A DNA stretch of 64,000 nucleotides from Dehalococcoidia bacterium (GTDB lineage: Bacteria; Chloroflexota; Dehalococcoidia; Lucifugimonadales; JAGWBF01), in contig OZ240206.1 in NCBI GenBank assembly GCA_965197405.1, forward strand, positions 1,408,179 through 1,472,178. The letters run 5' to 3'. A program made the translations under genes and the position numbers. The notes below the pieces were generated by a model, which was given only the letters and a program-made list of their open reading frames with translations, did not search any database and was not told the origin of the DNA. How positions within the stretch are numbered: position 1 is the stretch's first letter; each line of letters opens with the position of its first letter. Below, one piece after another: positions 1,520 to 54,651 of this stretch.

Positions 1520-2479
1520 CTACGGAGCCAAACCTAAACGCTGCCAATGACGGAAAAGAATTTCGTAGTCCGTCCAGGTGCTCTCCGAATCTGTAAGGAA
1601 CAAGAAGACATGAGCACCAAGGTCAGTAACCGCAGAAGCTGCTATATCGTTTAGTCCGCTACGACTCTCCACCAGAATAACCGTAGGCGAATATTTCTCT
1701 TCAAGCCGGGACAGCATGCGCTCCAGACGCATGGTCCAACTCTCACCGGAATCCATGAAAACTCTTCCCAATTTGGGGAGATACTCCCCCGGCTCGCATC
1801 CATGCGCAGGTACCACCCGGACATCTCCTTCCAAATTTTGGGCCCACTCTGGGGCACCAACCATAGAGGCGATGACCTGGTCACTCTGTCCTACCAAATC
1901 CTCTACGAACCAGTCGGTAACACCGTACTCGGGCTGAGTTGAGGATTCAAGCATTGCTGAAGATAAACCGGGCGATTCCAAGTCAAGGTCAACGACCATT
2001 ACATCCGCCCCTTTACTAGCTAAGTACCACGCGAGAACCGCTGCAGTAGTGCTGCGCCCAACTCCGCCCTTGACCGAAAACAACGTGAAGCGAGATGCAC
2101 CTTCCAAAGAATCGGTGGCACGGATAGTCCCCCATGCCTGACCAGTCACCAGTCGGTCAACCAAATACACATTCTGGTATATTTCAAGCGCGTTATTGGA
2201 AAGTTCGCCAAGAACTTCAACGTCAGAATACAGAACTGCCGAGTCAGACGAACTTGCACGTGGACCCAGAACGGCAGCTAAATCCTTGGCAAACCCTTGC
2301 AGGTTCTGCTGTATTTCTTCGGAATCTTCGAAAACGTCAGACACAGCGATATGCAATATACCAAACAGGTCGCGTACCAAGAAGATGCGGTCCACGCCAT
2401 CCGGAAGGCCCCCGGCTTTTCCCAAAAGCTCCTCGACACGTCCCAAAAGGCTATCGAATGAAACGAAGCTTAGGCTCAT
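1520..2479 (-). CDS. ParA/MinD-like ATPase with variant deviant Walker A 'KGGVGRST' and a ~130-aa N-terminal extension
   Basis: 'FSVKGGVGRSTTAAVLAWYLASKGADVMVVDLDLESPG' is the ParA/MinD deviant Walker A context, with Arg where the canonical GK[ST] Lys sits. 'ILVESRSG' is a Walker B-like strand. The start overlaps the upstream gene's stop (ATGA at 2476-2479). Confidence 0.75.
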   Translation of the reverse strand: MSLSFVSFDSLLGRVEELLGKAGGLPDGVDRIFLVRDLFGILHIAVSDVFEDSEEIQQNLQGFAKDLAAVLGPRASSSDSAVLYSDVEVLGELSNNALEIYQNVYLVDRLVTGQAWGTIRATDSLEGASRFTLFSVKGGVGRSTTAAVLAWYLASKGADVMVVDLDLESPGLSSAMLESSTQPEYGVTDWFVEDLVGQSDQVIASMVGAPEWAQNLEGDVRVVPAHGCEPGEYLPKLGRVFMDSGESWTMRLERMLSRLEEKYSPTVILVESRSGLNDIAASAVTDLGAHVFLFLTDSESTWTDYEILFRHWQRLGLAP

Positions 2480-5277: not shown

Positions 5278-7125
5278 CTAGAAATCTGGCCGGAAAGTGG
5301 CGTCAGCCGGGTAAGCGGCTATACTTGTGGGAAACAAGTATAACGGGGGCTGAGAATGCTGGGAGAGCGTTCGAACCAGAGAGGTCTTTGGGAAGCGGAT
5401 AGTTTGTATTTGGACCACGTGGGGCGTGATAGCTTCTACGGTATATTGGCCTCGTTGCGGGGCCAGTTGTTTCGAGACTCCGATTTCGCCGTGTTGTACT
5501 GCGCCGACAACGGGCGGGACAGCGTACCGCCCAGCCTGCTGGCTACCGTTTTGCTGCTACAGGCTCATGATCGGGTGAGCGACGCCGAGGCCAAGGCGAG
5601 GGCGGACTTTGACCTCCGCTGGAAGGTAGCCCTGGGGATCGAGGTGGAGGATAGGCCCTTCGCCAAGAGTACGCTGCAAGTGTTTCGTGCGGGGTTGATA
5701 CTGCACGACAAAGTGCGGGAGGTATTCGAGCGTAGTCTGAAATTGGCGCGTGAATCAGGATACCTCAAGGGGAAACGCATGAAGGTGGCCTTGGACACGA
5801 CCAACATCCTCGGCCGCGGCGCTGTGAAGGACACCTACAATCTGCTGTCGGACGGGATCGTCCGGCTGGCGCGAGCGCTGGCGCAGCTAAGGGGAATCAG
5901 CGTTGGGGAATGGGCGAAGAGCCAGGGATACGCGCGTACCTGGCTTCCAGCGTCAAAGGAGAGGCGGCCATAGACTGGGCCGACCGGCAGGCCCGGGCAG
6001 CGCTGTTGGCTGGGATTGTGGAAGACGCGGACCGGCTATTGGAGTTGTCGCGGCAGGCGCAGGGGGAATTGGCAGAAGACAGCTCTGAGCATCAGCGGAT
6101 TGTGGCCGCGTCGGAACTGCTGGGCCAGTTGCTGCTACAGGACGTGGAACGGACTGAAGGCGGAGCGGACTTGAGGGATGGGGTGAGCCGGGACCGCATC
6201 TTGTCGGTGCATGACCCGGAGATGCGCCACAGCCACAAGAGCAGCAGCCGACGGTTCGATGGACACAAGGCGGCGGTGGTGGTGGACACCGACTCTCAGT
6301 TGATCACTGCGGTGGACGTATTGCCCGGCAATGCTGCGGACAGTCTGGGCGCGCTGGAACTGGTGGAACAGAGCGAAGCGAGCACCGGGATACCGGTGGA
6401 GGAGGCCATGGGTGATGCTGCGTACGGGGGTGGCGATACTCGCCAGACCTTCGCCGATGCGGGACGCAGGCTGGTGGCCAAGACGCCAGGGCGTCCCAAC
6501 CGGACTCATTTTCCCAAGGACGACTTCCGGATTGACTTTGGAGTCGGGCTCCTGCACCTGTCCGGCGGGGAATGTTACCCGAACCATGCTGCCAACGAGG
6601 AAACGAAACGACCATTTGGACCGGACCTATAGTTTCTTCCGATTCGATGCGGCGGTTTGTGGAGCGTGCCAGCTGCGGCCCCAGTGCGTTGCGGCGGGAC
6701 CGGGCACAGGCCGGACGGTGCGGCTGCATCCCCAGGAAACGCTATTGCAGCAGGCCCACGCCTTACAGCAGAGTGAGGCCTTTACCGGATACCGTAGACG
6801 CCGTGTGGTCGTTGAGCATCGGTTGGCGCGGCTGGTCCAGCTCGGAATCCGCCAGTCCCGCTACTTCGGACGCGCCAAGACACTATTCCAGCTGTACCTG
6901 GCGGCTACGGTCGCTAATCTGACCCTGGTGGCCGCCAAAGCCGGCATGACCGGTGAAACCGGCTCCGGTCCAAGTTCCGACAGCATCCTGGTAACTCGCA
7001 TCGTTAGCTCCGCCGCCAATACCGGTGCCGCGTGGCTCAGGCAAATTTGGACACTCACTTTGCTCGCGCCGGTCTTACTGCCACATTACCCCTTCCCTAC
7101 AAGGGGTTTCCGTCCGAGTTTCTAG
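5278..7125 (+). mobile_element. IS1182-like (IS5-superfamily) element, degenerate
   Basis: Imperfect terminal inverted repeats: 'ctagaaatctggccggaaag' at 5278 and 'gtttccgtccgagtttctag' ending at 7125. The transposase is broken over three frames. Confidence 0.65.
5356..7125 (+). pseudogene. IS1182-like transposase, disrupted by two frameshifts (ORFs 5356-5973, 5910-6632, 6331-7125)
   Basis: N-terminal 'DSVPPSLLATVLLLQAHDRVSDAEAKARADFDLRWKVALG' (transposase N-terminal domain). Middle 'GHKAAVVVDTDSQLITAVDVLPGNAADS...GDAAYG' (DDE). C-terminal 'YRRRRVVVEHRLARLVQLGIRQSRYFGRAKT'. Each part is in a different frame. Confidence 0.75.
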
Positions 7126-8620: not shown

Positions 8621-10261
8621 TCAGCCCGGACAGCGGCAGTCGTGGGGATTCCGGCTCCCACAGTGGACGCCACGACGGTCCCAGTATCCCTGTGTGGGAC
8701 AGAGCGGCCCGGCAGGACACGAAGATGGGCAGCGCCGGCTCATCCGGGAAGCGGTGCGCACGTAGGTGTCCTCGACATCCTCGGTGTCCACGACGAAGAG
8801 GGTGACGGGGTACGGCGGCTGGTCGTCTCTGTGCTCGTTGGACCAGTAGTAGCTCTCATAGGGGTCCAGGCGGGCGATAACTCCCCTGGGGTGACGGGCG
8901 CGTAGCTCGTACTCGAAGTAGAACGGTATCTGAAGGCCCTGGTCGGTCATCTGCCCCACAGCGTCGGGTGCGATGGCCGAATCGCCCCAGTTGTAGGCCC
9001 GGTCGGCCCTGGCGGTAGGGACGGACCACACTAGCTCGCTGTCGGGGTCGGCCCTCCCCTCGGCCTGAAGCTTCGTTAGGAACCACGTGATGCCGTCGGC
9101 GTGCTTCGTCTGCCTCGCCCATGTCTCGATGCGGTGGCCCACGTACCGTCTGCGGCCCTGTTTGTCTCTCGTGAGGGCGGTGCTCCAGATGCCCTGCGTC
9201 GTGGGCAGCTGGGCGCGGTCCCTGTGGGTGACGTAGCGTATGCCCTCGGCGGACAGCGTGTAACGTGTGTCTCCGCGTTGTCCCTGCCGCTCGACGAGAC
9301 CCCAGGTATCGACGAGGCTTCGCATCATCTGGCTGACCCGGCCCTCGGAGACTCCCAGCCAGAGGGCAAGGTGCTCACGGGGGATCATCGGGTGGTCGGT
9401 GATGAGGTCCAGCGTCCGCTTCTCAGACGGGCTGACGCCGAAGGCCGGCGCAGCCCGTGCCATCCGCTCGGGACGGGGCAGCGACGCCCGCTTCCGCTCC
9501 GGCGACTGGGTGCGATGCCTTCCGCCGGGGCTGCCGTGCGAACTCACGTCCTCCAGCGTGCGGTACGTGCTGCCGACCCACGAGTATTTGTGCCAGAGGC
9601 GAAGGTCCCGTCTTTCGAGCACGTTCCTCGACTCCACGGCGACGAAGTAGTCTTCAAGGTTCAGTCGCTCGCAGAACCTCGTCGTCAGCCCCTGCTCCCA
9701 CACGCTGGGCGTCAGGATCAGGACGGCACCGGGGCGGCGACTGTAGTCGTACCCCGCGAAGGCCCTCAGCCGGTCGTAGAGTGACCGGCGCCGCAGGGCC
9801 GGACCCTGCCGCACCACGCCGAACTTGCGGCCGTCGTGGAGGATGATGGTGGCGTCAAAGCGGCCCCGGCGGTGGAACTCCACCTGAGACCGGAGCGAGC
9901 CGGTCCCTGGTGACAGGGACGCGGCGAGGCGGTAGACGGTGGCCACCGCGTCCATCCGGCGGATCAGCAGCGTAAGCCATTCCCTGGACACCGAGTAGCT
10001 GCGCACGAAGTCCGAGGACGTATCGAAACCGAGGATCCCGGCGGCTTCGCCGATGCCCTCGGCGGTCAGGTAGTGTCGCCCGCTTGAAGGCAGGTGGGCG
10101 GTGCCATGACTGACGCGCCCAACGATGCCGCCGTCCAAGAGGCCGCTCAGGGCACGGTGAGTGGTTGCGTGAGCTTCGCCGAGGATGACCGCCAGTTCCG
10201 CCGTGTCGACGAACGGCAGCCGGCTGAGGCAGTGGAGTAACTGCTGGACGGAGATTGCCAT
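8621..10261 (-). CDS. replication-relaxation-like protein with winged-HTH modules
   Basis: Two wHTH-like stretches ('LAVILGEAHATTHRALSGLLDGGIV' and 'LALWLGVSEGRVSQMMRSLVDTWGLV'). 'IAPDAVGQMTDQGLQIPFYFEYELRARHP' resembles the Replic_Relax core. The C-terminal ~60 aa look aberrant, which may reflect a frameshift. Confidence 0.5.
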   Translation of the reverse strand: MAISVQQLLHCLSRLPFVDTAELAVILGEAHATTHRALSGLLDGGIVGRVSHGTAHLPSSGRHYLTAEGIGEAAGILGFDTSSDFVRSYSVSREWLTLLIRRMDAVATVYRLAASLSPGTGSLRSQVEFHRRGRFDATIILHDGRKFGVVRQGPALRRRSLYDRLRAFAGYDYSRRPGAVLILTPSVWEQGLTTRFCERLNLEDYFVAVESRNVLERRDLRLWHKYSWVGSTYRTLEDVSSHGSPGGRHRTQSPERKRASLPRPERMARAAPAFGVSPSEKRTLDLITDHPMIPREHLALWLGVSEGRVSQMMRSLVDTWGLVERQGQRGDTRYTLSAEGIRYVTHRDRAQLPTTQGIWSTALTRDKQGRRRYVGHRIETWARQTKHADGITWFLTKLQAEGRADPDSELVWSVPTARADRAYNWGDSAIAPDAVGQMTDQGLQIPFYFEYELRARHPRGVIARLDPYESYYWSNEHRDDQPPYPVTLFVVDTEDVEDTYVRTASRMSRRCPSSCPAGPLCPTQGYWDRRGVHCGSRNPHDCRCPG

Positions 10262-10986
10262 ACGTCCAGCGTAGCAGAGGAGGAGCGCGGCGGCCAGCCA
10301 TCAAGTGTCAGTGACGGTTGCGCCGTTTCGACGGGCCTCACACTCCAGCCTAGCCTTCCGTTAGCCCACGACCGCCACGGCGACTTTTCCAACAAGCCCA
10401 ATCTTGATGATTGACATATCCGGCGGGCGTCGGCGTTAAGGTTGGTCTTGGCCCTGAGTCCTCGGGCGGTTCCGTTATTGCTCCCTCGGAGCAAACGATA
10501 CCGGCGGGCACCGAGTTGGCGCGACACGGGGCCTCCGCCGCCCCTGACGCGCCAGACTACAACCACTCCTCGGCGGTTTTGGCAGTGGCCGGGCTGTAAG
10601 GGAATCTTGAATGCGTTGCATAGTGCAATCGGGGCCGATTCCAACGGGGATCGGGTGGGATTCGAGGGCGGGGCGGGCGATTTGTGCGGGGAGTCAGTTG
10701 ACGGTCTATAGCAACTTCATTGCAGCGGTTGTATTGCAGAACTTGCAGGTTTGGAGTATGGATGACGTGTCCTTGTATCCTTTCCAGCAGCGCTTGAGGT
10801 GGAGCGGGAACGGCGCTATTGCCATCGGGACCCCCTGTCAATGACAGCCAGATTGATCCGCGCAAGGCAATCCTAAGAATCCTCTGACTATCCATGCCTC
10901 TCGAGACTTCCCGTTGTGTGTCGCTCAATGATACACTTGATGTACTGAAACGGTGAGGCTAGGGTGGTCTTGCTGGGTGATGGGTA

Positions 10987-11223
10987 ATGCCGACAGTGGC
11001 GGCGGAAGGGCAGTTCCGCTTCGTAGTCAACACCAGGGAAAACGCCTTCGAGCCTCCCCACGTGCATGTTTGGGTGGGTAACGAAGACGTATGCCGCATT
11101 GAGTTGAACGGGGGCGGCTATATGGACCAGCCACCTCCTGGCAACTTCCGGGACATCATGCGGGCGTATGCTAGACACGCGGCGGAAATCAGGGCAACGT
11201 GGGAAGCGATACACGGGAGGTAA
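10987..11223 (+). CDS. DUF4160-family small protein
   Basis: 'FRFVVNTRENAFEPPHVHVW' is the characteristic DUF4160 motif. Lies 3 nt upstream of its partner gene. Confidence 0.7.
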   Translation: MPTVAAEGQFRFVVNTRENAFEPPHVHVWVGNEDVCRIELNGGGYMDQPPPGNFRDIMRAYARHAAEIRATWEAIHGR

Positions 11224-11226
11224 CCA

Positions 11227-11730
11227 ATGGACGTGGTTCTGGTGAAAAACGCCAACCGGATGATGACCACCGCCAGCCTATTGGATGACGGGATCGAGTT
11301 GAGCTTCGCCGACGGGTTCAGGGGCCTCATACCGTACGCCGATGTTCCCGAAGTCAGGGAGCGCGAGGGAATATACGGCCTGGAACTGCCGAACCCCTAC
11401 GAAATGGTGCTGGAAACGGCTGGGGGCGAGAGAGTCGAGGTTCCCTGGGACTTCGCCCGGCACTACTGCGACGCATCGTACCGGCCAACCATCGAAGCCA
11501 TTGCCGCATTGGGAAGGCAGACCATAGGCGAGCGGGTCCGCCGATTCAGGGAGTCAGCGGGGCTAACCCAGGAGGCGCTGGCCCATGCCGCGGACATAGG
11601 ACGGGTTACGCTGGTCAGGCTGGAGAATGGGGAACAGTCCCCCAGGTTCAAGACCCTGATGGCCATTGCTCACGCTCTGGGTTTGGACGCCCCGGAGTTG
11701 CTAGTCGAATCGGAGTTGCTGATTCGATAG
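11227..11730 (+). CDS. DUF2442-like N-terminal domain fused to an XRE-type HTH
   Basis: C-terminal 'IGERVRRFRESAGLTQEALAHAADIGRVTLVRLENGEQSPRFKTLMAIAHALG' is a canonical XRE HTH. The DUF4160/DUF2442 pairing is a recurrent two-gene module. Confidence 0.65.
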   Translation: MDVVLVKNANRMMTTASLLDDGIELSFADGFRGLIPYADVPEVREREGIYGLELPNPYEMVLETAGGERVEVPWDFARHYCDASYRPTIEAIAALGRQTIGERVRRFRESAGLTQEALAHAADIGRVTLVRLENGEQSPRFKTLMAIAHALGLDAPELLVESELLIR

Positions 11731-11770
11731 CTGCTGGGCGGTCGCAAAGAAGTGGAATGGACGCAGAAGT

Positions 11771-14700
11771 ATGGCAGAAGCTGGGAGAAAATCGTTGGCA
11801 GCCGTCGAGGACTACCTCGACGACCTGCGCAAGATACGCGCCTCTGGCGGCGGCACCGCCGAAACGTCCCACTACCCGCCGCTTACCAACCTGCTGAACG
11901 CCGTGGGCGGCGCGCTGAAGCCCAAGGTGTTCTGCATCAACCAAGTGGCAGAGCAGGGCGCTGGACACCCGGACTTGGGCCTCTTCGCCGCCAACCAGGT
12001 GCAGAAAGGCCAACCCAAGCAAGGGCAGAGCCAGAAGCCGGAGTGCGGGGTGGTGGAGGTCAAGCCCGCCGGCGACGACGCCTGGCTCACCGCCGACAGC
12101 TCTCAGGTCAGCCGCTATTGGGGCCTGTACCGTCTGGTGCTGGTCACCAACACCCGCGACTTCGTGCTGCTGGGCGAGGACTCGCAGGGCCAGCCCTCCA
12201 AGTGGGAGACCTTCCGGCTGGCTGACGCCGCCGACTTCGAGGCGAAGCTGCGACACCCCCGCGCCTTCGCCAACAGCGTCGGCCCGGCGCTGGCCGAGTA
12301 CCTGGGCCGCGCCCTGTCCCACCGGGCCACGCTGGCCGAACCCCGCGACTTGGCCCGGCTGCTGGCCTCCTATGCCCGCGATGGGTTGGCCCGGGTCGAG
12401 GCTTCCGGCGACGCATCGTCGCTGAACGCCGTGCGGTCGGCGCTGGAGGAGGCGCTGGGCGTCCGATTCGAGGGCGAGCGCGGCGTGGCCTTCTTCCGCT
12501 CGACGCTGGTGCAGACCCTCTTCTACGGCGTCTTCTCCACCTGGGTGCTGTGGGCGCGGCAGACTCCGGCTCCAGCGGGCCCCTTCGACTGGCGCACCTC
12601 CGTCTGGCACCTGCGCGCGCCCATCATGCAGGCCCTGTTTCAGCAGGTGACCAGCCCCGGACAGTTGCAGTCGCTGGACCTGGTGGAGGTGCTGGACTGG
12701 ACGGCGGCGGCCCTGGACCGGGTGGACCGCGACGCCTTCTTCGCCAGGTTCAACGAGGGCGAGGCGGTGCCCTACTTCTACGAGCCGTTTCTGGAAGCCT
12801 TCGACCCGGCCCTGCGCAAGCATCTGGGCGTCTGGTACACCCCCCAGCCGAGGTGGTGCGCTACATGGTGGCCCGCGTTGACCGCGCCCTGAAGGATGAC
12901 CTGGGCATCGAGGACGGGCTGGCCGCCGAGAACGTCTACGTCCTCGACCCCTGCTGCGGCACCGGGGCCTACCTGGCCGAGACGCTGAAGCGCATCGCCG
13001 CCAACCTGCTGGGCAAGGGCCTGGGAGCCCTCACCGGGGCGCGGGTGAAGCAGGCCGCGACGCAGCGGGTGTTCGGCTTCGAGATAATGCCCGCGCCCTT
13101 CGTGGTGGCCCACCTGCAGGTCGGCCTGATCATGCAGGCCCTGGACGCGCCTCTGTCCGAGGACGTCAACGAGCGGGCCGGGGTGTTCCTGACCAACGCG
13201 CTCACCGGCTGGGAGCCGAGGGCGCAGAAGCCCCTGCCCTTCCCGGAGTTGGAGGAAGAGCGGGACCGGGCCGAGCGGGTGAAGCAGGATACGCCGGTGC
13301 TGGTTATCCTGGGCAACCCGCCCTACAACGGCTTCGCGGGCGTGGCAATTGAGGAAGAGCAACGATTATTGGAAGCATATAGATCCGCGAAGCGCGTGGA
13401 TATTCCCGATACCAGAGCGCTTCACGACCTGTACGTGCGATTCTTCCGCATGGCGGAGCGGCGCATCGCGGAGAAGACCGGGCGGGGCGTCGTCTGCTTT
13501 ATCTCCAACTACTCCTGGCTGGACGGGCTGTCGTTCGCGGGAATGCGTGAGCATTATATGGGTGCTTTCGACGCCATTCGCATTGACTGTCTCAACGGAG
13601 ATGTTCGTAAGGGCGCAAAAACGCCTGACGGAGAACCTGATCCGAGTGTTTTCACCGTGCCACAGCAGTCGCTTGGTATTCAAGTAGGCACTGCTATAAC
13701 CACGCTGGTCCGCAAGGCTGAACACAGGCCAACCGAAACCATTAGTTTCCGCCATCTGTGGGGGCAATCCAAGCTCGATGCACTCAAGGCCACGGCGGAA
13801 TCAGAACCCATGGCACTTTATGTATCCATTGAACCAGTTCTCCCATTGGGCTTGCCCTTTGCCCCTACAGTTGTCAGTGAAGAGTGGCATGAGTGGCCGA
13901 CACTGCTAGAGCTATTCCCGACCTATTTCTGCGGCGTTAACACTAATCGGGACAAGTTGCTCGTAGAGATCGATCTCGAACACCTTAAATCCCGCATAAC
14001 TGATTATTTCAGCCCCGATTTGAGCCATGAGGAAATCGCCCGTCTTTACCCTACCGCGATGAAAACTACGGCACGATTCGACGCGCAGGCGGTACGCGAT
14101 ACTCTTCTCAAGCGTGGTGGCCCAGTGGATGCAGGGTTCGTCCGTTATTGTCATCGCCCCTTCGACACTCGTTGGCTGTACTGGGAAGCAGATACAAAGC
14201 TCCTTAACGAGAAACGGGCTGACTATATGCCACACGTGTTCCCCGAGAACATTTGGCTATCTGCTGTTCCTCGCTTACGGAAGGACGAAACTGAGCCACA
14301 AGCTGTGATTACGTCGCGCATGGCTTCTCTTCACTTGATTGAATAGGGCGCCAATATGTTCCCCGCGTGGCTCCGCGATGAGGGGTTGGCGCTGGACGGG
14401 GGCGGGGCGCAGCGTCGGCCCAACCTGTCGGCGGCGGCGCAACGCTACCTCGACCGGCTGGGGTTGGGGGTAGAGGAGCTGTTCCACCACGCGCTGGCGG
14501 TGCTGCACGACCCGGCCTACCGGGCGGCCAACGCCGGGGCGCTGCGGATGGAGTGGCCGCGCATACCGCTGCCCGGCTGGCCCGATGGCGACGCGCCTGG
14601 CGCTGCCGGGGAGCTGCGCGCCTCCGCAGCGCGGGGCCGGGAGTTGGCCGCGCTGCTGGACCCGGAGACGCCGGTGGCGGGGGTGACCGCCGGGGCGCTG

Positions 14701-15117
14701 CGCCCGGAGCTGGCGGCCATCGCCGTCCCGTCCACCGCCGACGGACGCAACATGAGCGGCGACGACTTCGCGCTGACTGCTGGCTGGGGCCACTTCGGGA
14801 CCGGAGACGCCGTGATGCCCGGCCAAGGCCGCGCCGTGGAGCACCCCTACACCGCAGACGAGCGGGAGGCACTGGGCGAGGCCGACGGCGTTCTCGGAGA
14901 TGCCACCTTCGACGTTCATCTGAACGACAACGCGCAGTGGAGCAACGTCCCCGACGCCGTCTGGAACTACAAGCTGGACGGCTACCAGGTTCTCAAGAAG
15001 TGGCTCTCATACCGGGAAAGCAAAGTCCTGGGTCGCAGCCTGCTGCCGGAGGAGGTGCAGCACTTCACGGACACCGCCCGCCGGATAGCGGCTATCCTAT
15101 TGGGCACGGGGACTTGA
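11771..15117 (+). pseudogene. MmeI-like type IIG restriction-modification enzyme (PD-ExK nuclease + gamma-class N6-adenine MTase + type ISP-like C-terminal domain), disrupted twice
   Basis: N-terminal 'GHPDLGLF...GVVEVKP...YRLVLVTNTRDFVLL' (PD..ExK). MTase motifs 'VLDPCCGTGAY' and 'ILGNPPYNGF'. C-terminal 'VWNYKLDGYQVLKKWLSYRE'. Frame change at the C6 run 12840-12845 ('GVWYTP|PAEVVRYMV'). The in-frame TAG at 14344-14346 separates ORFs 12550-14346 and 14356-15117, which share a frame. Confidence 0.75.
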
Positions 15118-16495: not shown

Positions 16496-17980
16496 ATGCC
16501 AGAACTGCGCATCTATCAGCAGAATCTCTTTGAGCGGACGGTGTCCTGTGTGCAACCCGCCCAGGCGCGGGCGATGCTCCAGTTGCCGACTGGCGGAGGC
16601 AAGACCCACATCGCTGGGGCGTTACTGAGACACTGGCTGCACAACGGGCGCAAGGCAGTCTGGCTGACCCACCGCGTGGAGTTGGCTGAACAAACTCGCC
16701 GAATGCTGACGGAGGCCGGAATATCTGCTATTAACCTGAGTTGGCCGCTGGGCGAAGGTGCTCCGTTTATTTCCAACGGTGTAGTTATATTGATGGCCCA
16801 GACCGTCGGCAGACGCACCGGCCGGATGCAAATTTGGGGCCAATACGATAGCGGCGACATCCTAGTTATAGATGAGGCGCATCACGCCACTGCCAAGGGG
16901 TGGGAGCGGGCGATAAGCCAGTGGCCAGGCCGGGTTATCGGCCTGACCGCTACCCCTTGGCGACTGTCCCAGACCGAGGGGTTTGACCACCTATTCAGAG
17001 AACTACTCTGCGGCCCCCAGGTCAGCGAGCTTCAAGCCGATGGCTATCTGTGCCAAACCCGGGTACTCATGCCCAGGCCAGAGGAGGTTATACGTGGCGG
17101 CGCAGTCAACGCTCTCGGTGAATACTCCGAATCCGGAATCGAGCAGGCCAATCGGGACCGCCCCGACATAATGACCGCGGGTGCATTCCGCTACTGGGAT
17201 CTCCATGCCAAGAAACGCCAGACCATCATCTACGCCGTATCGCAGGATCACGCCCGCAACCTGGCAGCGCTGTTCAACGGCGCCGGCATTCCCGCCAATG
17301 TGATGCTCAGCGACACGCCTCCCCAGGAACGGGCCGAGATTATCGAATCCTTTGGTGACGGCACCCTTCGCGTTTTGGTCAACGTCGCGGTCGCAACCGA
17401 GGGGTTTGACCTACCCGACGCCTCCTGCGTTGTAATCACGCGGCCCACCATGAGCCTGGCGTTGTACCTGCAAATGGTAGGCCGAGGCATGAGGCCAAAA
17501 GCCAACGGGGAGGACTGCCTGATCTTGGACCTCGCAGGCAACGCAGATATTCACGGGTTGCCTGAGGACAACAGGAAGTGGACGCTGGCGCCTCGCTTTA
17601 ACGACGCCGATGGTAAAGGTCCAATTGTAAGGTGCGAGAAATGCGAAGCGGTTTCGCCTGCGGCCAGCCATTTTTGCGTCTTCTGCGAGTATCCGTTCGG
17701 CAAGGACTGCCCTCGGTGCGGCACATGGCGGGCCTGGGAACGCTGGCGGTATGAAAATCACTGCGGCAACCAGCACGATTTGGTCTGCGATCTCTGCCAC
17801 TATGACGCTCACATTCAGTCGGAATTGCCTCTCACTGGCGAACTGAGGAGACTAAGAAACTATCTCAAATTGTGGTTCCAAATTGTAGTTAATGTGAGGG
17901 AGTTGTCGCTAGTAGTCAGTCATGTTTGGAATCGAAGGGATAGAGGCGGTGTAATTTGGTTCGGGCATCCTGAGTCTTGA
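16496..17980 (+). CDS. RadD-like SF2 DNA helicase with C-terminal Cys-rich zinc ribbons; native sequence ends at ~17851, and the last ~43 codons are IS-derived
   Basis: Helicase motifs 'LQLPTGGGKTHIA', 'LVIDEAHHAT', 'GLTATPWR' and 'ATEGFDLPDASCVVITRPTMSLALYLQMVGRGMRP'. Zinc-ribbon region 'CEKCEAVSPAASHFCVFCEYPFGKDCPRCG...CDLCHYDAH'. The IS5-type terminal repeat starts at 17852. Confidence 0.7.
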   Translation: MPELRIYQQNLFERTVSCVQPAQARAMLQLPTGGGKTHIAGALLRHWLHNGRKAVWLTHRVELAEQTRRMLTEAGISAINLSWPLGEGAPFISNGVVILMAQTVGRRTGRMQIWGQYDSGDILVIDEAHHATAKGWERAISQWPGRVIGLTATPWRLSQTEGFDHLFRELLCGPQVSELQADGYLCQTRVLMPRPEEVIRGGAVNALGEYSESGIEQANRDRPDIMTAGAFRYWDLHAKKRQTIIYAVSQDHARNLAALFNGAGIPANVMLSDTPPQERAEIIESFGDGTLRVLVNVAVATEGFDLPDASCVVITRPTMSLALYLQMVGRGMRPKANGEDCLILDLAGNADIHGLPEDNRKWTLAPRFNDADGKGPIVRCEKCEAVSPAASHFCVFCEYPFGKDCPRCGTWRAWERWRYENHCGNQHDLVCDLCHYDAHIQSELPLTGELRRLRNYLKLWFQIVVNVRELSLVVSHVWNRRDRGGVIWFGHPES

Positions 17981-19156
17981 ACCGCCAGTTGATGGTGACC
18001 CGCGCCTCGTTTCGCTCCTGCACCGAGGCCCCGACTTCCCGTTGGAGCGATTCTGCGTCGGGGAGCCGCTGCTTCAGACAGGAGCGGGATAGCACGCTGA
18101 ACTCGATCTCCGCCATGTTCAGCCAACTGCCGTGCTTGGGCGTATAGTGGAACTCCAGCCGTTTAGCTATCCGCCGGGCTTCCGGCGCGGGGAAGGTCTC
18201 GTACAACGAAGCGAGGCGATGGGTGTTCAGGTTGTCCAGCACCACCCGCACCACCTCGACCTCCGGGTAGGCCTCATCCACCAGCCAGCGCATCTGGTGG
18301 GCGAAGTCCTGCATGGTGCGCCGTTCGGTCACCGCCACCTGCCGCCAGCCAGCCAGGGGCTCACAGGCCAGGAACAGGTTGCGGGTTCCCTCCCGCCGGT
18401 ACTCGTAGTCCCGACGCAGCGGACGCCCCGGCTCGGCAGGGAGAGAGGGCCGCGTCTCGGCTAACAACTGGGTGGAGGTCTCATCAAAGCAGACCACCGG
18501 CCGTTGCGGGTCATAGGGTTCGGCGTACAAATCCAGGACGTCCTCCATGTGGGCCACGAAGTCGGCGCTTACCTCGGGGATGCACCACTCCTGCTTCTGC
18601 CACGGCTTAAGGACGTTTTTTTGAGCCGCTGGCGCACCGTCTCGTGGGACAAGGATGACGCCAACCCCAACTCCACCACTTTGTCCTCCAGCAAGCGCAG
18701 GGTCCAATGGTCATGTCCTTCCGGCGCTGGGCTACAGGCCAAGGCAATCAGAGCCTGCCCCGTACTGGATACGGGGTGGGCTTCGCCCAGGTCCTCCAGC
18801 TTCCGGTACCCGTTCGCTTGGACCCGGTCTTGCAGCGCCCCAGCCAACCCAGCTTCGGCAAAGCGGCGCTTGACGCGGAACACCGTGCCCTCGACCACAT
18901 CCAAGGCTTGCGCCACCCGGGGCGCAGACCAACCTGCATCGGTCTTGAGCAGTATCCGCGCCCGAATAGTCACCCGGGCGGTACTTTTACCAGCCCGAAC
19001 CAAGTGTTCCAGTTGGTTCCGCTGCTCCGGCGTCAACCTGACTCCGTACTTTTCCCTGACCATACCACCACCTCACTTCAACCCAGTCTGTTGCTCAGTA
19101 TAGCGCCTTGGTTCAGACTCTTTAAACTACCATCAAAAACAGATTTGACTGACTAC
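17912..19156 (-). mobile_element. IS630-family element (type C), copy 1, nested in the IS5-family copy, flanked by TA
   Basis: Ends 'gtagtcagtca...tgactgactac', with TA on both sides (17910-11 and 19157-58). 1245 bp. Near-identical copy at 54671-55915. Confidence 0.85.
17916..19063 (-). CDS. IS630-family transposase, orfA (18569-19063, HTH) + orfB (17916-18707, DDE), slippery A7 run
   Basis: orfB 'VVCFDETSTQL...YEYRREGTRNLF...VLDNLNTHR...FHYTPKHGSWLNMAEIEFS' is a DDE_3/Tc1-mariner-like core. A T7/A7 run at 18606-18612 sits where the two frames meet. Confidence 0.85.
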
Positions 19157-45003: not shown

Positions 45004-45369
45004 GTGGTCAAGAGAGCGAGATTCGATCGCGACGCCTTTTACGCCGCCCTTGACGGGGAGAGGCAAGCACGCCAATGCACCTGGAGGCGAGTAGCTGAAG
45101 AAAGCGGGGTGAGCGCTTCCACACTGACTCGCATCTCTCAAGGCAAGCGGCCTGACGTGGACAGCCTTGCCGCCTTATCAGCCTGGTCAGGACTGGACGT
45201 AGACAGGTTCGTCAAAGGCGGTCCTTCCAGGAAGGAGCCGGAGCCTCTGGCGATGATTTCATCGTGCCTCCGGTCTGATCCTCGGTTGAATGAGAAGGCC
45301 GCCACTGCTCTGGACCAGATGGTGAAGGCAGCGTATAAGAGCATGAGCAGTCCAGAGAGAACTGTATGA
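45004..45369 (+). CDS. XRE-type HTH protein, possible controller of the R-M operon
   Basis: 'WRRVAEESGVSASTLTRISQGKRPDVDSLAALSAWSGLD'. Its stop overlaps the hsdM start (ATGA). Confidence 0.6.
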   Translation: MVKRARFDRDAFYAALDGERQARQCTWRRVAEESGVSASTLTRISQGKRPDVDSLAALSAWSGLDVDRFVKGGPSRKEPEPLAMISSCLRSDPRLNEKAATALDQMVKAAYKSMSSPERTV

Positions 45370-47330
45370 GCGCCCTTAACATCAGCAGCTTCATATGGGG
45401 CATCGCGGACGACGTTCTGCGCGATGTCTATGTCCGGGGCAAGTATCGCGACGTCATCCTGCCCATGACAGTCATCCGCCGCCTTGACGCGGTGCTGGAA
45501 CCGGCAAAGGAAGCGGTGCTCCGCATGAAGCAGCAGATGGACGCCGCCGGTATCACCAACCAGGACCGGGCGCTGCGCCAGGCCTCCGGCGAGGCCTTCT
45601 ACAACACCTCCTCCTTCCGGCTCCGTGACCTGACCTCTATCGGCCAGCAGCAGAGGCTCCGGGCCGACTTCGAGGCGTACCTCGACGGCTTCTCGCCCAA
45701 CATCCAGGAGGTCCTGGAGAAGTTCGAGTTCCGCAACCAGATTCCCAGGCTGGTCGAGACGCATGCGCTGGGGTTCCTGCTGGAGAAGTTCCTCGACAAG
45801 TCGATCAACCTCAGCCCCCGGCCCGTTCTGAACGGAGACGGCTCCGTGCGTCTGGAGGGCCTCGACAACCACGGCATGGGCACCGTCTTCGAAGAGCTCA
45901 TCCGGCGCTTCAACGAGGAGAACAACGAGGAGGCCGGGGAGCACTTCACCCCGCGCGACGTGGTGCAGCTCATGGCCCGCCTCGTCTTCCTGCCGGTTGC
46001 CGATGAGATCAGGCCCGCCACCTACCTGGTCTATGACGGCGCGTGTGGCACCGGCGGGATGCTGACGGTCGCGGAGGAGACGCTGACGCGGCTGGCCGGC
46101 GAGCAGGACAAGGAAGTGTCTGTCCACCTGTACGGCCAGGAGGTGAACCCTGAGACCTACGCCATCAGCAAGGCCGACCTCATCCTGAAGGGAGAAGGCG
46201 TCGAGGCTGACAATATGCAGTTCGGCTCCACCCTCTCCTCCGACGCCTTCCCAGCCCGAGAGTTCGACTTCATGCTCTCCAATCCGCCCTACGGCAAGAG
46301 TTGGAAGAGCGACCTGGAGCGCATGGGCGGCAAGTCCGGCATCACGGACCCGCGCTTCGTCGTGGAGCACGGCGGCAACCCGGAACACTCCCTCATCACT
46401 CGCTCCAGCGACGGCCAGATGATGTTCCTGGCAAACATGCTCAGCAAGATGAAGCACGACAACCAAATGGGCAGCCGCATCGCCGAGGTGCACAACGGCA
46501 GCTCCCTCTTCACCGGCGACGCCGGGCAGGGCGAGAGCAACATCCGCCGCTGGATCATCGAGAACGACTGGCTGGAGGCTATCGTTGCCCTGCCGCTCAA
46601 CATGTTCTACAACACCGGCATCGCCACCTACATCTGGGTGCTCAGCAACCGCAAGCCGGAGCATCGCCGGGGCCAGGTGCAGCTGATAGACGCCACCCAG
46701 TGGTACAGGCCGCTGCGCAAGAACCTGGGCAGCAAGAACTGCGAGTTGTCCGACGAGGACATCCGGCGCATCTGCGACGCTTTCCTCGCCTTCGAGGAGA
46801 CGGAGCAGTCGAAGATATTCCCCAACGAGGCCTTCGGCTACTGGAAGGTTACCGTGGAGCGCCCGTTGCGATTACACGGGATTGACCCTGAACGGGCCTA
46901 CACCGCCAAGGAGATCAAGACCCTCAGGGACGAGGCCGAGCGTTCGGAGACCGCGCCGCCTGTTATCAGGCGAGTCCACAAGACGGGCACACAGCCGGAC
47001 CCGCTTCGCGGCCTGTTCCCGGTTACGCTCGACGGCAGGGAAGCCGTGGTGGAGTATGAGCCGGACACCGACCTGCGTGACACCGAGCAGGTGCCGCTTC
47101 TCCACGAAGGCGGCACCGAAGCCTTCCTCCGCCGGGAGGTGCTTCCCTACGCCCCGGACGCCTGGTACGCCCCGGACAGCGTGAAGGTCGGCTACGAGAT
47201 CAGCTTCACCCGCCACTTCTACAAATCCCAACCGTTGCGACCCCTGGAGGAGATACGGGCCGACATCCTCGCGCTGGAGCGGGAGACGGAGGGGCTGCTG
47301 GCGGAGATTGTTGGAGATGGAAGACTGTGA
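45366..47330 (+). CDS. hsdM: type I restriction-modification methyltransferase subunit
   Basis: 'YDGACGTGGML' (motif I) and 'MLSNPPYGKSW' (motif IV). N-terminal HsdM helical domain. Confidence 0.9.
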   Translation: MSALNISSFIWGIADDVLRDVYVRGKYRDVILPMTVIRRLDAVLEPAKEAVLRMKQQMDAAGITNQDRALRQASGEAFYNTSSFRLRDLTSIGQQQRLRADFEAYLDGFSPNIQEVLEKFEFRNQIPRLVETHALGFLLEKFLDKSINLSPRPVLNGDGSVRLEGLDNHGMGTVFEELIRRFNEENNEEAGEHFTPRDVVQLMARLVFLPVADEIRPATYLVYDGACGTGGMLTVAEETLTRLAGEQDKEVSVHLYGQEVNPETYAISKADLILKGEGVEADNMQFGSTLSSDAFPAREFDFMLSNPPYGKSWKSDLERMGGKSGITDPRFVVEHGGNPEHSLITRSSDGQMMFLANMLSKMKHDNQMGSRIAEVHNGSSLFTGDAGQGESNIRRWIIENDWLEAIVALPLNMFYNTGIATYIWVLSNRKPEHRRGQVQLIDATQWYRPLRKNLGSKNCELSDEDIRRICDAFLAFEETEQSKIFPNEAFGYWKVTVERPLRLHGIDPERAYTAKEIKTLRDEAERSETAPPVIRRVHKTGTQPDPLRGLFPVTLDGREAVVEYEPDTDLRDTEQVPLLHEGGTEAFLRREVLPYAPDAWYAPDSVKVGYEISFTRHFYKSQPLRPLEEIRADILALERETEGLLAEIVGDGRL

Positions 47331-51304: not shown

Positions 51305-51623
51305 CAACGGGTCACCCAGGCCGTTGCGCCACCGGCTCTTCGGACACCAGGTCGAGACGGCCAGAGAACGCGGCTGGGGCACCTTAGCCAACGGCGTCCT
51401 GCTGAGCCAGGCCGAGGAAGCCGGTTTTGAAGTTCTGCTCACCACTGACCAAGGCATCCGATACCAACAAAATATGGCCAACCGGCAAATAGCCGTAGTC
51501 GTCCTGATGAACACTGCTTGGCCCCGCATTTCGCGGCGAGCGGAGGCTATCCGCAACGCCATCGAGGGGATGCAGCCCGGTGAAGTGCGGGAAGTCCACA
51601 TCCCGATGAGAGGCGAGGCATAG
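51288..51623 (+). CDS. DUF5615/Mut7-C PIN-like protein (toxin-like)
   Basis: 'MRILFDNGSPRPLRHRL...EVLLTTDQGIRYQQN'. Overlaps the DUF433 gene by 17 nt. Confidence 0.6.
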   Translation: MRILFDNGSPRPLRHRLFGHQVETARERGWGTLANGVLLSQAEEAGFEVLLTTDQGIRYQQNMANRQIAVVVLMNTAWPRISRRAEAIRNAIEGMQPGEVREVHIPMRGEA

Positions 51624-51624
51624 C

Positions 51625-54600
51625 GTGACCACCGACACCAGCGAGAAGGGCCTTGAGCGCCTCATCTGCACCGCGCTCACGGGCGCGCCCTGCGACCCAC
51701 CGCAGGGCGGCATTGTGCGCGAGCGGCCCGCCGGCTACGGCGCCGGCTGGATTTGCGAAGATTCGCAGGACTACGACCGGGAGTACTGCGTAGACCTGGC
51801 CCAGCTCTCCGCCTTCCTCCATGCCACCCAGCCCAACGCCGCCGAATCGCTGGGCCTCGGCCAGGACAGCCCGACGCGGCGCAAGTTCCTGGCCCGGCTG
51901 CAAGGGGAAATCACCCGGCGAGGGACCATTGACGTGCTCCGCAAGGGCGTCAAGCACGGGCCGCACCAGATCGACCTGCTCTACGGGACACCGTCGCCGG
52001 GGAACGAAAAGGCCAGGGTCCAGTACGGGCAGAACCGCTTCAGCGTGACGAGGCAGCTCCACTACAGCCGGGACCAGGCCCAGCTTGCCCTGGACCTGTG
52101 CCTGTTCATCAACGGCCTGCCCGTCGCCACCTTCGAGCTGAAGAACAGCCTGACCAAGCAGACGGTGGACGACGCCGTCGAGCAGTACAAGCGGGACCGA
52201 CACCCCAGTGAGAAGCTCTTCGAGCTTGGCCGCTGCCTTGTCCACTTCGCCGTGGACGACCACGAGGTGAAGTTCTGCACGCACCTAAAAGGCAAGGCGT
52301 CGTGGTTCCTGCCCTTCAACAAGGGGTGGAATGACGGCAAAGGCAACCCGGCGAACCCCAACGGCCTCAAGACCGACTACCTGTGGAAGCAAGTCCTCAC
52401 CCGCGACGGGCTCACCGACATCATCGAGAACTACGCTCAGATCGTGGAGACGAGGGACGACAAGACCGGACGCAAGAGGCGGGAGCAGATATGGCCTCGC
52501 TACCACCAGTTGGACGTGGTGCGCAGGCTGTTGGCCGACGCATCCGGTAGAGGAGTCGGCCCCAGGTATCTGGTCCAGCACTCGGCGGGCAGCGGCAAGT
52601 CCAACTCCATCGCGTGGCTGGCCCACCAGCTAATCGGGTTGGAGCAGGACGGCAAGGCGCTCTTCGATTCGGCCATCGTCGTCACGGACCGCAGGATATT
52701 GGACAAGCAGATACGGGACACCATCAAGCAGTTCGCCCAGGTCGGCTCCGTGGTGGGCCACGCCGAGGACTCCGGCCATCTCCGCACCCTGCTCCAGGAT
52801 GGCAAGCGGATCGTCATCACCACCGTCCAGAAGTTCCCCTTCATCCTGGACGCCATCGGCAACGAGCACCGGGGGCGCAAGTTCGCCATCATCATTGACG
52901 AGGCCCATTCGAGCCAGGGAGGGCGCACGTCGGCATCTGTATCCATGGCGCTGGGAGAGGCCGGTTCAGAGGGTGAAGAAGAGACCACGGAAGACAAGAT
53001 CAACCGGCTGATGGAGAGCAAGAAGCTGCTGCTCAACGCCAGCTACTTCGCCTTCACGGCCACCCCCAAGAACAAGACACTGGAGATCTTCGGCGACCCG
53101 TCGCCGGAGGGCGGGAACACCAGGCATCTCCCATTCCACGTCTACACCATGAAGCAGGCGATTCAGGAGGGGTTCATCATAGACGTGCTTGAGCACTACA
53201 CGCCGGTGGACAGCTACTACCGGCTCGTCAAGACGGTGGAGGGAGACCCGGAGTTCGACACCAAGCGGGCCGGGAAGAAGCTGCGGCGCTACGTGGAGGA
53301 CAACGAGCACGCCATCCGCCTCAAGGCGGAGATCATGGTGGACCACTTCCACGAGCAGGTGGCCGGCTTGCACAAAATTGGCGGGCAGGCGCGGGTCATG
53401 GTGGTCACGAGCAGCATCCAGCGGGCCATCAGCTACTTCTACGCCATCCGGGACTACCTGGCGGAGCGTAAGAGCCCCTACCGGGCCATCGCCGCCTTCT
53501 CCGGAGAGCACGAGTACGGCGGCGCGAAGGTCACGGAGGCATCCCTCAATGGCTTCTCGTCGAACCTGATCGCCGACAGGATTCAGGAAGACCCGTACCG
53601 CTTCCTGGTATGTGCCGACAAGTTCCAGACCGGCTACGACGAGCCTCTGCTGCACACGATGTACGTGGACAAGATCTTGTCTGGCGTCAAGGCTGTGCAA
53701 ACGCTGTCGCGTCTCAACCGAGCGCACCCCAAGAAGCACGACACCTTCGTGCTGGATTTCAACAACGACGCCGACACGATCCAGGACGCCTTCGCCGACT
53801 ACTACCGGACCACGGTCCTGGCGGAAGAGACCGACCCTGACAGGCTGCACGATCTCAAGGCGGCGCTTGATGGCTATCAGGTCTACGCCCCGGCGCAGTT
53901 GGACGAATTGGTGGAGCGGTACCTTTCGGGGGCCGACCGCGACCAACTCGACCCCATCCTGGACACCTGCGTCTCTGCCTATCGAGAGCAGCTGGACGAG
54001 GACGGTCAGGTGGACTTCAAGGGCAAGGCCAAGGCGTTCCTCCGGACTTACGGGTTCCTGGCCGCAATCCTGCCCTACGCCAACGCCGAGTGGGAGAAGC
54101 TCTCCATCTTCCTGACCTTCCTCGTTCCCAAGCTGCCTGCGCCCATCGAGGACGACTTGTCGAAGGGGATTCTGGAAGCCATCGACATGGACAGCTACCG
54201 GGTGGAGAAGCAGGCGGTGCGGGGCGTCCAGCTTCCCGACGAGGACGCCGAGATCGAGCCGGTATCCGCCAGCGGCGGCGGGCAGAAGCCGGAACCGGAG
54301 ATGGAGCGGCTCTCCAACATCATCAGGGAGTTCAACAACCAGTTCGGCAACATCGAGTGGAAGAACCAGGACAAGATCGAGAGGGTGATCACCGAAGAGC
54401 TGCCCGCCAAGGTTGCCGGGGACCGGGCGTACCGGAACGCCATGGCCAACTCCGACCGGCAGAACGCCCGGATTGAGCACGACAAGGCCCTGGAACGCGC
54501 CATGACCGACTATGTGGCAGACCCAATCGAGCTGTTCAAGCAGTTCAGCGACAACGATTTGTTCCGCCGGTGGCTTTCCGAGATAGTCTTCGCCGCTACA

Positions 54601-54651
54601 TACACCGAACCTGCCGCCACGACCAGCGCGTCAAGAAGTCTGGATGTCTGA
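51625..54651 (+). CDS. hsdR: type I restriction endonuclease subunit R
   Basis: 1008 aa. 'HSAGSGKSNSIAW' (motif I), 'IIIDEAHSSQ' (DEAH), 'FTATPK' and 'DKFQTGYDEPLLHTMYVDK'. GTG start 1 nt after the previous stop. Confidence 0.9.
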   Translation: MTTDTSEKGLERLICTALTGAPCDPPQGGIVRERPAGYGAGWICEDSQDYDREYCVDLAQLSAFLHATQPNAAESLGLGQDSPTRRKFLARLQGEITRRGTIDVLRKGVKHGPHQIDLLYGTPSPGNEKARVQYGQNRFSVTRQLHYSRDQAQLALDLCLFINGLPVATFELKNSLTKQTVDDAVEQYKRDRHPSEKLFELGRCLVHFAVDDHEVKFCTHLKGKASWFLPFNKGWNDGKGNPANPNGLKTDYLWKQVLTRDGLTDIIENYAQIVETRDDKTGRKRREQIWPRYHQLDVVRRLLADASGRGVGPRYLVQHSAGSGKSNSIAWLAHQLIGLEQDGKALFDSAIVVTDRRILDKQIRDTIKQFAQVGSVVGHAEDSGHLRTLLQDGKRIVITTVQKFPFILDAIGNEHRGRKFAIIIDEAHSSQGGRTSASVSMALGEAGSEGEEETTEDKINRLMESKKLLLNASYFAFTATPKNKTLEIFGDPSPEGGNTRHLPFHVYTMKQAIQEGFIIDVLEHYTPVDSYYRLVKTVEGDPEFDTKRAGKKLRRYVEDNEHAIRLKAEIMVDHFHEQVAGLHKIGGQARVMVVTSSIQRAISYFYAIRDYLAERKSPYRAIAAFSGEHEYGGAKVTEASLNGFSSNLIADRIQEDPYRFLVCADKFQTGYDEPLLHTMYVDKILSGVKAVQTLSRLNRAHPKKHDTFVLDFNNDADTIQDAFADYYRTTVLAEETDPDRLHDLKAALDGYQVYAPAQLDELVERYLSGADRDQLDPILDTCVSAYREQLDEDGQVDFKGKAKAFLRTYGFLAAILPYANAEWEKLSIFLTFLVPKLPAPIEDDLSKGILEAIDMDSYRVEKQAVRGVQLPDEDAEIEPVSASGGGQKPEPEMERLSNIIREFNNQFGNIEWKNQDKIERVITEELPAKVAGDRAYRNAMANSDRQNARIEHDKALERAMTDYVADPIELFKQFSDNDLFRRWLSEIVFAATYTEPAATTSASRSLDV

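Follow-up and report, generated by a model that had tools for sequence, protein, structure and literature searches.

A probable DrdV-like Type IIL restriction-modification pseudogene with a putative exchangeable specificity module in a Dehalococcoidia bacterium

The restriction-modification (R-M) enzyme DrdV (PDB 7LO5/7LVV) combines a nuclease, a helical connector, a gamma-class N6A methyltransferase (MTase), and a target recognition domain (TRD) in a single chain of 1029 amino acids (aa). Its base-specific contacts are made by N448, Q485, K486, K488, N548, R554, and D564 of the MTase and by N673, R721, Y764, D803, and K807 of the TRD (bioRxiv 10.1101/2021.01.06.425610). Here, we describe a locus with the same predicted domain order in a 64,000-nucleotide (nt) stretch of a Dehalococcoidia bacterium genome (assembly GCA_965197405.1, contig OZ240206.1, positions 1,408,179 to 1,472,178), which is referred to below as the window. 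Positions 11771-15117 of the window probably represent a recently inactivated DrdV-like Type IIL R-M gene that carries an exchangeable specificity module, visible as an AT-rich patch, and that was killed by independent small lesions.

Exchange of specificity segments has been described in several R-M systems. The Type ISP enzymes LlaBIII and LlaGI are >95% identical in their first three domains, <50% identical in the C-terminal part of the MTase and the TRD, and closer again in the last ~100 aa (PMC3553950). Their MTase and TRD are homologous to those of the window protein (Type_ISP_C) and likewise show conserved flanks around a swapped specificity module, although they also carry a RecA-like helicase/translocase and an Mrr nuclease, and the window protein has no helicase domain. 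In the MmeI family, which belongs to the same Type IIL class, the recognised bases are set by a few TRD residues near positions 806-810 (PMC2731914); these residues are analogous to the variable column that is struck by a stop codon in the window gene. In the TRD movement of Helicobacter pylori ("domain movement") and in the shuffling of Type I hsdS genes, specificity segments are exchanged between near-identical genes via flanking conserved sequence, as appears to be the case here, and many Type IIG and Type III genes in H. pylori genomes are truncated by mutation (PMC3077401, PMC3467074, PMC3983042). It is well known that near-identical single-chain R-M genes exchange TRD modules and that mutation often kills them afterwards (LlaGI/LlaBIII, PMC3553950; H. 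pylori, the three reports just cited). The family of the window gene differs from these examples of TRD movement in that exchange is seen between genomes of different phyla and not within one species, and in that the exchanged unit takes in half of the MTase domain.

Reconstruction and class of the disrupted gene

The window gene was compared with the best 120 of at least 8000 relatives scored in a word-indexed protein search and with samples from a genome scan, from which 82 family loci were fetched; 76 genes from these loci were used for comparison at the DNA level and 75 intact homologues for codon composition. The 120 homologues were ~1,105-1,125 aa long and 75-86% identical to the repaired window protein over the full length.

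Our open reading frame (ORF) map and reconstruction showed that the plus-strand ORFs 11771-12892, 12550-14346, and 14356-15117 form one gene of ~1,114 codons once repaired (Table 1). The first two ORFs lie in different frames, and the last two lie in the same frame with only the TAG between them. A tblastn search of the window with the repaired protein showed that the frame of homology changes at 12838-12844 and continues past the TAG to 15114. The initial annotation had proposed a single gene of about 1115 codons with a PD..ExK nuclease, NPPY, and a type ISP-like C-terminal domain, interrupted by a frameshift and an in-frame TAG, and this gene structure was recovered with its motifs and a Type_ISP_C domain. 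The correct annotation of the locus is one disrupted DrdV-like Type IIL R-M gene and a disrupted partner gene, not three ORFs.

Table 1. Positions of features of the R-M locus and its surroundings in the window
Feature	Position	Strand	Basis or remark
R-M pseudogene, predicted single-chain Type IIL/IIG enzyme, ~1,114 codons when repaired	11771-15117	+	ORFs, Pfam, homologues, PADLOC, AF2/Foldseek
PD-(D/E)xK nuclease motif, intact	11966-12064 (HPD 11966-11974, EVK 12056-12064)	+	Conservation in aligned sequences
C6 run with frameshift, +2 bp relative to all homologues	12840-12845	+	Homologue alignment
MTase motif I DPCCGTG, intact	12946-12966	+	Conservation
MTase motif IV NPPY, intact; six codons 5' of the patch; aligns with DrdV N448-Y451	13315-13326	+	
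Low-GC3 patch, putative exchangeable specificity module: C-terminal half of the MTase domain and first half of the TRD	13345-14355	+	GC3 change points
In-frame TAG, probably from TGG (Trp) of the nearest alleles; aligns with DrdV K807	14344-14346	+	
Conserved C-terminal part of the TRD/Type_ISP_C domain	14347-15117 (stop TGA 15115-15117)	+	Includes GYQVLKKWLSYRE at 14980-15018
DUF4160 gene, first of a 4.2-kb unit shared with L001, L002, and L003	10987-11223	+	
167-aa HTH_3 protein directly 5' of the R-M gene, possible controller (C) protein	11227-11730	+	Pfam HTH_3 1e-14; PADLOC Control_protein 5e-8
Partner gene, membrane-anchored pentapeptide-repeat protein, broken by an in-frame TAA	15120-16136 (TAA 15561-15563)	+	
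Replic_Relax/MarR_2 (replication-relaxation) gene, mobile-element context	8621-10261	-	Pfam
DDE_3 transposase, mobile-element context	17916-18707	-	75% nt and 78% aa identity to the L002 copy

The catalytic motifs of the window gene were well preserved. Among 121 aligned sequences, D68, E96, and NPPY were invariant, K98 was present in 120, and every position of HPD...EVK, DPCCGTG, and NPPY was conserved in at least 119. The window gene retains HPD...EVK, DPCCGTG, and NPPY, and its GVWYTP (YTP) motif is disrupted only by the frameshift.

Pfam searches of the repaired protein detected Type_ISP_C (1.7e-39, residues 714-1090), a match that spans the TAG, and N6_Mtase. No Pfam nuclease model matched the N-terminus, and the nuclease was called from the motif, the PADLOC profile, and the fold. 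The PADLOC profile REase_MTase_IIG matched the intact homologue P0001 at 1e-82 and 2e-72 (residues 5-513 and 6-925). In a search of the PDB, DrdV was the best match (E 2e-35 with the single sequence and 2.9e-79 with the family profile), followed by LlaBIII and LlaGI (profile ~1e-60); the alignment with DrdV reached residue 937-961. An AlphaFold2 (AF2) model of P0001 had a predicted local distance difference test (pLDDT) score of only 53 when the alignment contained only homologues of at least 75% identity, and reached a pLDDT of 90.6 and a predicted TM-score (pTM) of 0.86 when relatives of 35-55% identity were added. A Foldseek search with the latter model placed DrdV (7lo5) first over the full length (E 5e-41) and Type ISP enzymes next, with BpuSI ranked 27th and MmeI 33rd.

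Three other assignments were rejected. A Type ISP enzyme would carry a RecA-like helicase/translocase domain; no helicase family of Pfam or NCBIfam matched the repaired protein, the model shows only a helical connector with no room for a helicase, and the Type ISP structures align over the MTase-TRD region only. Membership of the MmeI family proper was rejected since MmeI_Mtase scored 18.3 bits against a Pfam cut-off of 27, Eco57I was also below threshold, no other MmeI domain matched, and MmeI (5HR4) was absent from the sequence and profile matches in the PDB at E <= 0.01; the label "MmeI-like" in the initial annotation was therefore too loose, DrdV being the closest structure. A BREX PglX or MADS methyltransferase was rejected on NCBIfam scores of 14.7 and 23 bits, compared with cut-offs of 400 and 720, and the neighbours are DUF4160, helix-turn-helix (HTH), and pentapeptide-repeat genes. 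Because of the matches to DrdV, the motifs, and the lack of a helicase, the window gene is best classified as a predicted pseudogene of a DrdV-like Type IIL/IIG single-chain enzyme with the order nuclease-MTase-TRD, and not as a Type ISP enzyme or a strict member of the MmeI family. DrdV is the best match in both sequence and fold; however, the two proteins are only ~20% identical, the N-terminal nuclease is not alignable by sequence, and the window copy is a pseudogene.

A putative exchangeable specificity module

The G+C content at third codon positions (GC3) changed sharply within the reconstructed gene. A two-change-point likelihood fit delimited a patch at 13345-14355, with an uncertainty of about 15 nt at each boundary, in which GC3 was 0.57, compared with 0.91 upstream and 0.88 downstream. 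The log-likelihood ratio of this fit was 77, whereas 200 shuffles of the codons averaged 5.2 and reached 10.5 at most; the AT-rich patch that had been noticed by eye was thus confirmed, and the composition of the gene is not uniform. In 50-codon windows, GC3 was 0.86-0.96 up to ~13.27 kb, 0.48-0.68 (one value of 0.82) over 13.27-14.25 kb, and 0.78-0.96 thereafter, with a partial recovery at ~13400-13480 ahead of the consistently low stretch. Bulk GC was 0.49-0.56 in the patch and 0.68-0.80 in the flanks. Since the other long ORFs of the window had a median GC3 of 0.755 (range 0.51-0.88), the flanks of the gene lie at the top and the patch near the bottom of the local range.

The patch coincides with the variable core of the family (aa ~650-860), where homologues are only 50-65% identical to each other, compared with 83-96% in the remainder, and it reaches further in the 5' direction. 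When the best identity to any homologue was taken in 50-aa windows, the flanks of the window gene reached 92-100% nearly everywhere and the patch 68-92%. The N-terminal ~100 codons were also mosaic (best match P0021, 92-98%), but without a compositional contrast. Between the window gene and its closest backbone relative, L001, synonymous divergence (dS) was 0.27 in codons 100-500 and 0.44 in the C-terminal part, and rose to 1.51 in codons 526-650 and 0.71 in codons 651-858 within the patch. The ratio of nonsynonymous to synonymous divergence (dN/dS) between these two genes was 0.09-0.20 throughout, and it was at most 0.26 in all comparisons, indicating that the patch diverged as functional coding sequence and not through decay. 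Post-inactivation decay as the source of the AT-richness was rejected on this low dN/dS, the sharp borders, and the occurrence of the same dip in intact homologues.

A reciprocal case was found in two intact genes, L001 and L002. They share 97-99% identity over codons ~504-867, which correspond to 13282-14373 in the window, and 67-93% outside this block; dS between them is 0.07-0.09 in the patch and 0.40-0.51 in the flanks. One module would have travelled between unlike backbones with its borders almost unchanged, and we regard this as the decisive case. Distance matrices of the 76 genes pointed in the same direction, with a flank-flank correlation (rho) of 0.67 and flank-patch correlations of 0.36 and 0.23. 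Separate comparison of patch and flanks, which had been proposed as a check, gave discordant groupings: upon clustering at 85% nt identity, the window backbone joined L001-L004 and L008, and the window patch remained a singleton. These results suggest that the patch is an exchangeable specificity module, with recombinational exchange as the best explanation of the discordance. The patch borders showed no repeats, inverted repeats, invertase sites, or site-specific recombination signatures, a further difference from TRD movement; because no repeats or recombinase sites flank the patch, the exchange was probably mediated by homologous recombination in the conserved anchors.

All mapped DrdV contacts except the catalytic NPPY Asn fall within 13345-14355. 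In the family hidden Markov model (HMM) alignment, the DrdV contacts corresponded to window codons 516 (NPPY Asn), 547, 548, 550, 618, 630, 726, 776, 814, 855, and 859, and N548 stayed unaligned. Because only the NPPY Asn lies outside, the module appears to comprise the complete specificity-determining stretch, in agreement with the earlier suggestion that the patch covers the target-recognition part. The last of these contacts, K807, corresponds to the TAG codon, and the conserved sequence GANMFPAWLRDEGL resumes directly 3' of the module. The coincidence of the patch end with the stop, which had been described as exact, was observed, but the patch seems to end there because the TAG struck the last variable, base-contact codon; alignments of the site with the homologues and with DrdV gave no evidence for a recombination junction that created the TAG. 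The comparison delimits the module with a precision of a few codons, its 5' limit lying shortly past NPPY and its 3' limit at the K807 equivalent, in a very conserved scaffold with hundreds of natural variants; such a map is of practical use where Type IIL specificities are to be engineered by swapping modules.

Low GC3 is a general property of the module across the R-M family that is more extreme in the window. Backbone GC3 exceeded that of the core (codons 651-858, equivalent to 13.72-14.35 kb of the window) in 72 of the 75 intact homologues (median difference 0.12, Wilcoxon p = 8e-14), regardless of host GC (0.50-0.74), and the family mean of GC3 tracked amino-acid conservation in 25-codon bins (rho 0.76). 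The backbone-core difference in the window, ~0.36, was the second largest in the family, and the low-GC3 tract there also takes in codons 575-650, which are GC3-rich in most relatives. Since the dip is family-wide and is found in intact genes, it is neither linked to inactivation nor the mark of a unique low-GC import. A drift of older module alleles towards AT may account for it, as may homogenisation of the scaffold with a bias to GC, or the two may act together. The GC3 deficit of the module is a measurable signal that may be used to study recombination regimes within genes.

No closer relative of the patch was found above ~78-79% aa or 78% nt identity in the full-length protein search and 80 genome loci, save the window's own annotated fragment P0121 (100%). 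A tblastn search with the repaired protein also revealed no second copy of the family within the window as a potential donor from the same genome. Of the swap from a lower-GC donor that had been suggested initially, the recombinational exchange is borne out by the discordant dS and the L001/L002 block, but the donor is not, as none was found and the GC3 dip is present in nearly all intact homologues.

Lesions and inactivation

The first lesion lies in a stretch that encodes GVWYT-P-AEVV, with a single Pro, in all 196 homologues (120 database proteins and 76 locus-derived genes). In the 76 locus-derived genes, the codons at this site are TAC ACC CCA/CCC/CCG GCC, with C runs of 2-5 bases; in the window, the sequence is TAC ACC CCC CAG CC, with the C6 run. 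The initial annotation placed the frame change correctly at this run but ascribed it to one missing C. One added C does restore the frame; however, it yields GVWYTPPAEVV, with a Pro insertion seen in no homologue. Because all homologues have a single Pro, the lesion is most simply a gain of two bases, either C4 to C6 or a CA insertion.

A switch at the C run, acting through phase variation or programmed frameshifting to make expression conditional, is barely credible. The frame is indeed lost inside a homopolymer, and judging from the sequence, slippage by -1 on CCC CCC would bring the downstream reading frame back and yield YTPPAEVV. The slipped product would, however, contain the Pro insertion, the downstream TAG would still truncate the protein, and C6 is short for a contingency tract, with no long tract among the homologues; a phase-variable contingency locus was rejected on these run lengths.

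The second lesion is the TAG. The corresponding column holds Trp in the closest alleles (P0001-P0004 and P0015), encoded by TGG in L001 and L002, and Arg, Gly, Ser, or Asn in the remaining homologues, which points to a one-step TGG to TAG change on the final variable codon. Stop-codon reassignment was rejected: TAG terminates 14 of the 30 long ORFs of the window, where it is the commonest stop, and is therefore an ordinary stop there. A third lesion, the TAA in the partner gene, occupies a position that is Glu in an intact homologue.

The inactivation appears to be recent, because the window gene departs from the family at only 8 of 500 highly conserved columns (homologue median 4, 90th percentile 10) and the catalytic motifs are also intact. 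Six of the 82 fetched loci (~7%) were broken as well at other positions, five of them by in-frame stops and one by a frameshift, indicating that pseudogenisation is common in this R-M family. Three of the seven nonsense codons in the family fall within 30 codons at the 3' end of the module (L012 846, L032 830, and window 858/859); this count is post hoc, is based on small numbers, and may be due to chance, and we do not claim it as a finding.

It seems very unlikely to us that the gene is intact and that errors of sequencing or assembly in a metagenome-assembled genome (MAG) produced the frameshift and the stop. The frameshift in a homopolymer and the intactness of all catalytic motifs would fit such errors, and the related records come from metagenome contigs, whose names (of the form ctg..._9x) suggest coverage of ~9-13x. 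Three independent errors would, however, be needed in 4.4 kb, two of them substitutions making stops (TAG 14344 and TAA 15561); the indel is +2 relative to the homologues and not the usual +/-1; and clean nonsense codons also occur in family members from other assemblies. Since there are three independent lesions, two of them substitutions, the lesions are probably biological.

The initial annotation had suggested that inactivation followed or accompanied the swap. In a causal version of this explanation, a module from a lower-GC donor would have been swapped in, its new sites would have been unmethylated, the enzyme would have become self-toxic, and inactivation would have been selected. The module of the window is a singleton allele in a common backbone, there is very little decay and death was therefore recent, the partner gene is also dead, and possible donors exist in whole-gene low-GC3 family members such as L082 (GC3 0.44-0.52). 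However, the intact genes L001 and L002 carry exchanged modules, the patch lies at a dS of 0.7-1.5 from every known relative with no recent donor known, low GC3 occurs across the family, the frameshift is not within the patch but ~500 bp 5' of it in the conserved backbone, the TAG is a simple TGG change, and the other six loci were broken at unrelated sites. Because of the large divergence of the patch and the lack of a recent donor, the swap cannot be dated relative to the lesions. We therefore consider a causal link between swap and death improbable, though less so than assembly error.

The explanation that we favour, an exchangeable module in a gene killed by independent small lesions, would imply the following. 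The R-M gene would have belonged to a horizontally spread module of DUF4160, an HTH controller-like gene, the R-M gene, and a membrane pentapeptide-repeat partner, with a replication-relaxation gene and transposases nearby. Family members would swap the specificity module by homologous recombination between the conserved NPPY anchor upstream and the GANMFPAWLRDEGL anchor downstream, and the window would carry a rare, old module allele in a backbone common to its close relatives. The gene would have died through the 2-bp gain in the C run and the TGG to TAG change, and the partner gene would have acquired its TAA. As both genes are disrupted, the source organism probably lacks the restriction barrier of a DrdV-like R-M gene.

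Several points weigh against this explanation. The homopolymer indel could be an assembly error, and a MAG origin of the window is itself deduced from where its relatives were recovered. No donor of the patch was found that would date the exchange or give it a direction. As separate parts of the patch match different homologues best, it may have arisen in several events and not in one. The proposed role in specificity rests on the alignment with DrdV at ~20% identity.

Genetic context and distribution of the family

The R-M gene belongs to a 4.2-kb unit at 10900-15100 (DUF4160, HTH_3, and the R-M gene) that L001, L002, and L003 also carry (79-84% nt identity). Only the closest relatives (L001, L002, L003, and L078) have the DUF4160 and HTH pair ahead of their R-M gene; L034 has the HTH gene there. 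The HTH_3 domain is C-terminal in the 167-aa protein, and the PADLOC match to a controller protein is weak.

The partner gene starts 2 nt after the R-M stop. A homologue of ~300 aa lies directly 3' of the R-M gene in 17 of the 82 family loci, including L078 (8345-9256), L003, L007, L008, L013, L016, L018, L019, L024, and L036, and is translationally coupled to it; the partner is also split in L014, L017, L012, and L028. The partner had no PADLOC match. Since pentapeptide-repeat proteins can mimic DNA, the partner might regulate the R-M enzyme. A scan for promoters and terminators gave nothing above chance.

In L001 and L002, weak matches to Replic_Relax are annotated 5' of the R-M gene; a tblastn search with the replication-relaxation protein of the window at E 1e-5 did not recover these two loci. 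The first ~19 kb of the window look like an integrated mobile element or island. This region also contains a ParA-like ATPase (1520-2479, minus strand) and an insertion sequence-type transposase split in two ORFs (DUF772 and DDE_Tnp_1_6; 5356-7125, plus strand), and GC in 1-kb windows is 0.50-0.70.

The family is widespread among uncultured bacteria. A scan of species-representative genomes yielded at least 578 relatives in roughly ten phyla, with ~70-86% aa identity across many of these. The hosts are MAGs of Dehalococcoidia/SAR202, Bryobacterales, Latescibacterota, Binatia, Entotheonella, Nitrospirales, Gemmatimonadetes, Alpha- and Gammaproteobacteria, and Thermodesulfobacteriota; judging from the record titles and the MAG series, they apparently belong to sponge-associated consortia. 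The bin prefix SB0661 occurs in two papers on sponge symbionts. In an exhaustive library of 50% clusters, the tight clade collapses and the next relatives are at most 55% identical, with 2,723 clusters at E <= 1e-30. A plasmid database contained only weak, partial matches annotated as "type ISP restriction/modification enzyme". Some genomes carry two or three copies; in OZ244718.1 (L005, L029, and L079), for instance, the backbones are 84-89% and the modules 69-76% identical at the nt level. This distribution points to one defence gene having spread between phyla very recently, apparently within sponge microbiomes.

More speculatively, the family may function as a community-level system, an idea that we hold only tentatively. 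One Type IIL scaffold (70-95% aa identity) would be shared by apparently sponge-associated Chloroflexota, Acidobacteriota, Latescibacterota, Binatia, Proteobacteria, Nitrospirales, Entotheonella, and others, and would be kept homogeneous and GC3-rich by frequent inter-genome recombination. Old, lower-GC3 modules would form a balanced polymorphism and pass from scaffold to scaffold, each genome holding two or three copies with different modules, and the window gene would be one casualty. If so, the GC3 contrast between scaffold and module would record two evolutionary regimes in one gene, such as GC-biased conversion of the scaffold and long-lived module alleles.

Other genes with possible roles in defence were observed in the window. 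A 494-aa ResIII/Helicase_C protein (16496-17980, plus strand), Cys-rich at its C-terminus, adjoins the dead R-M module; PADLOC matched it weakly to components labelled Type IV restriction and PbeA helicase. Type I R-M genes, hsdM-like at 45339-47330 and hsdR-like at 51610-54651 (both plus strand), are present in the same window, indicating that the region and the genome are rich in defence genes.

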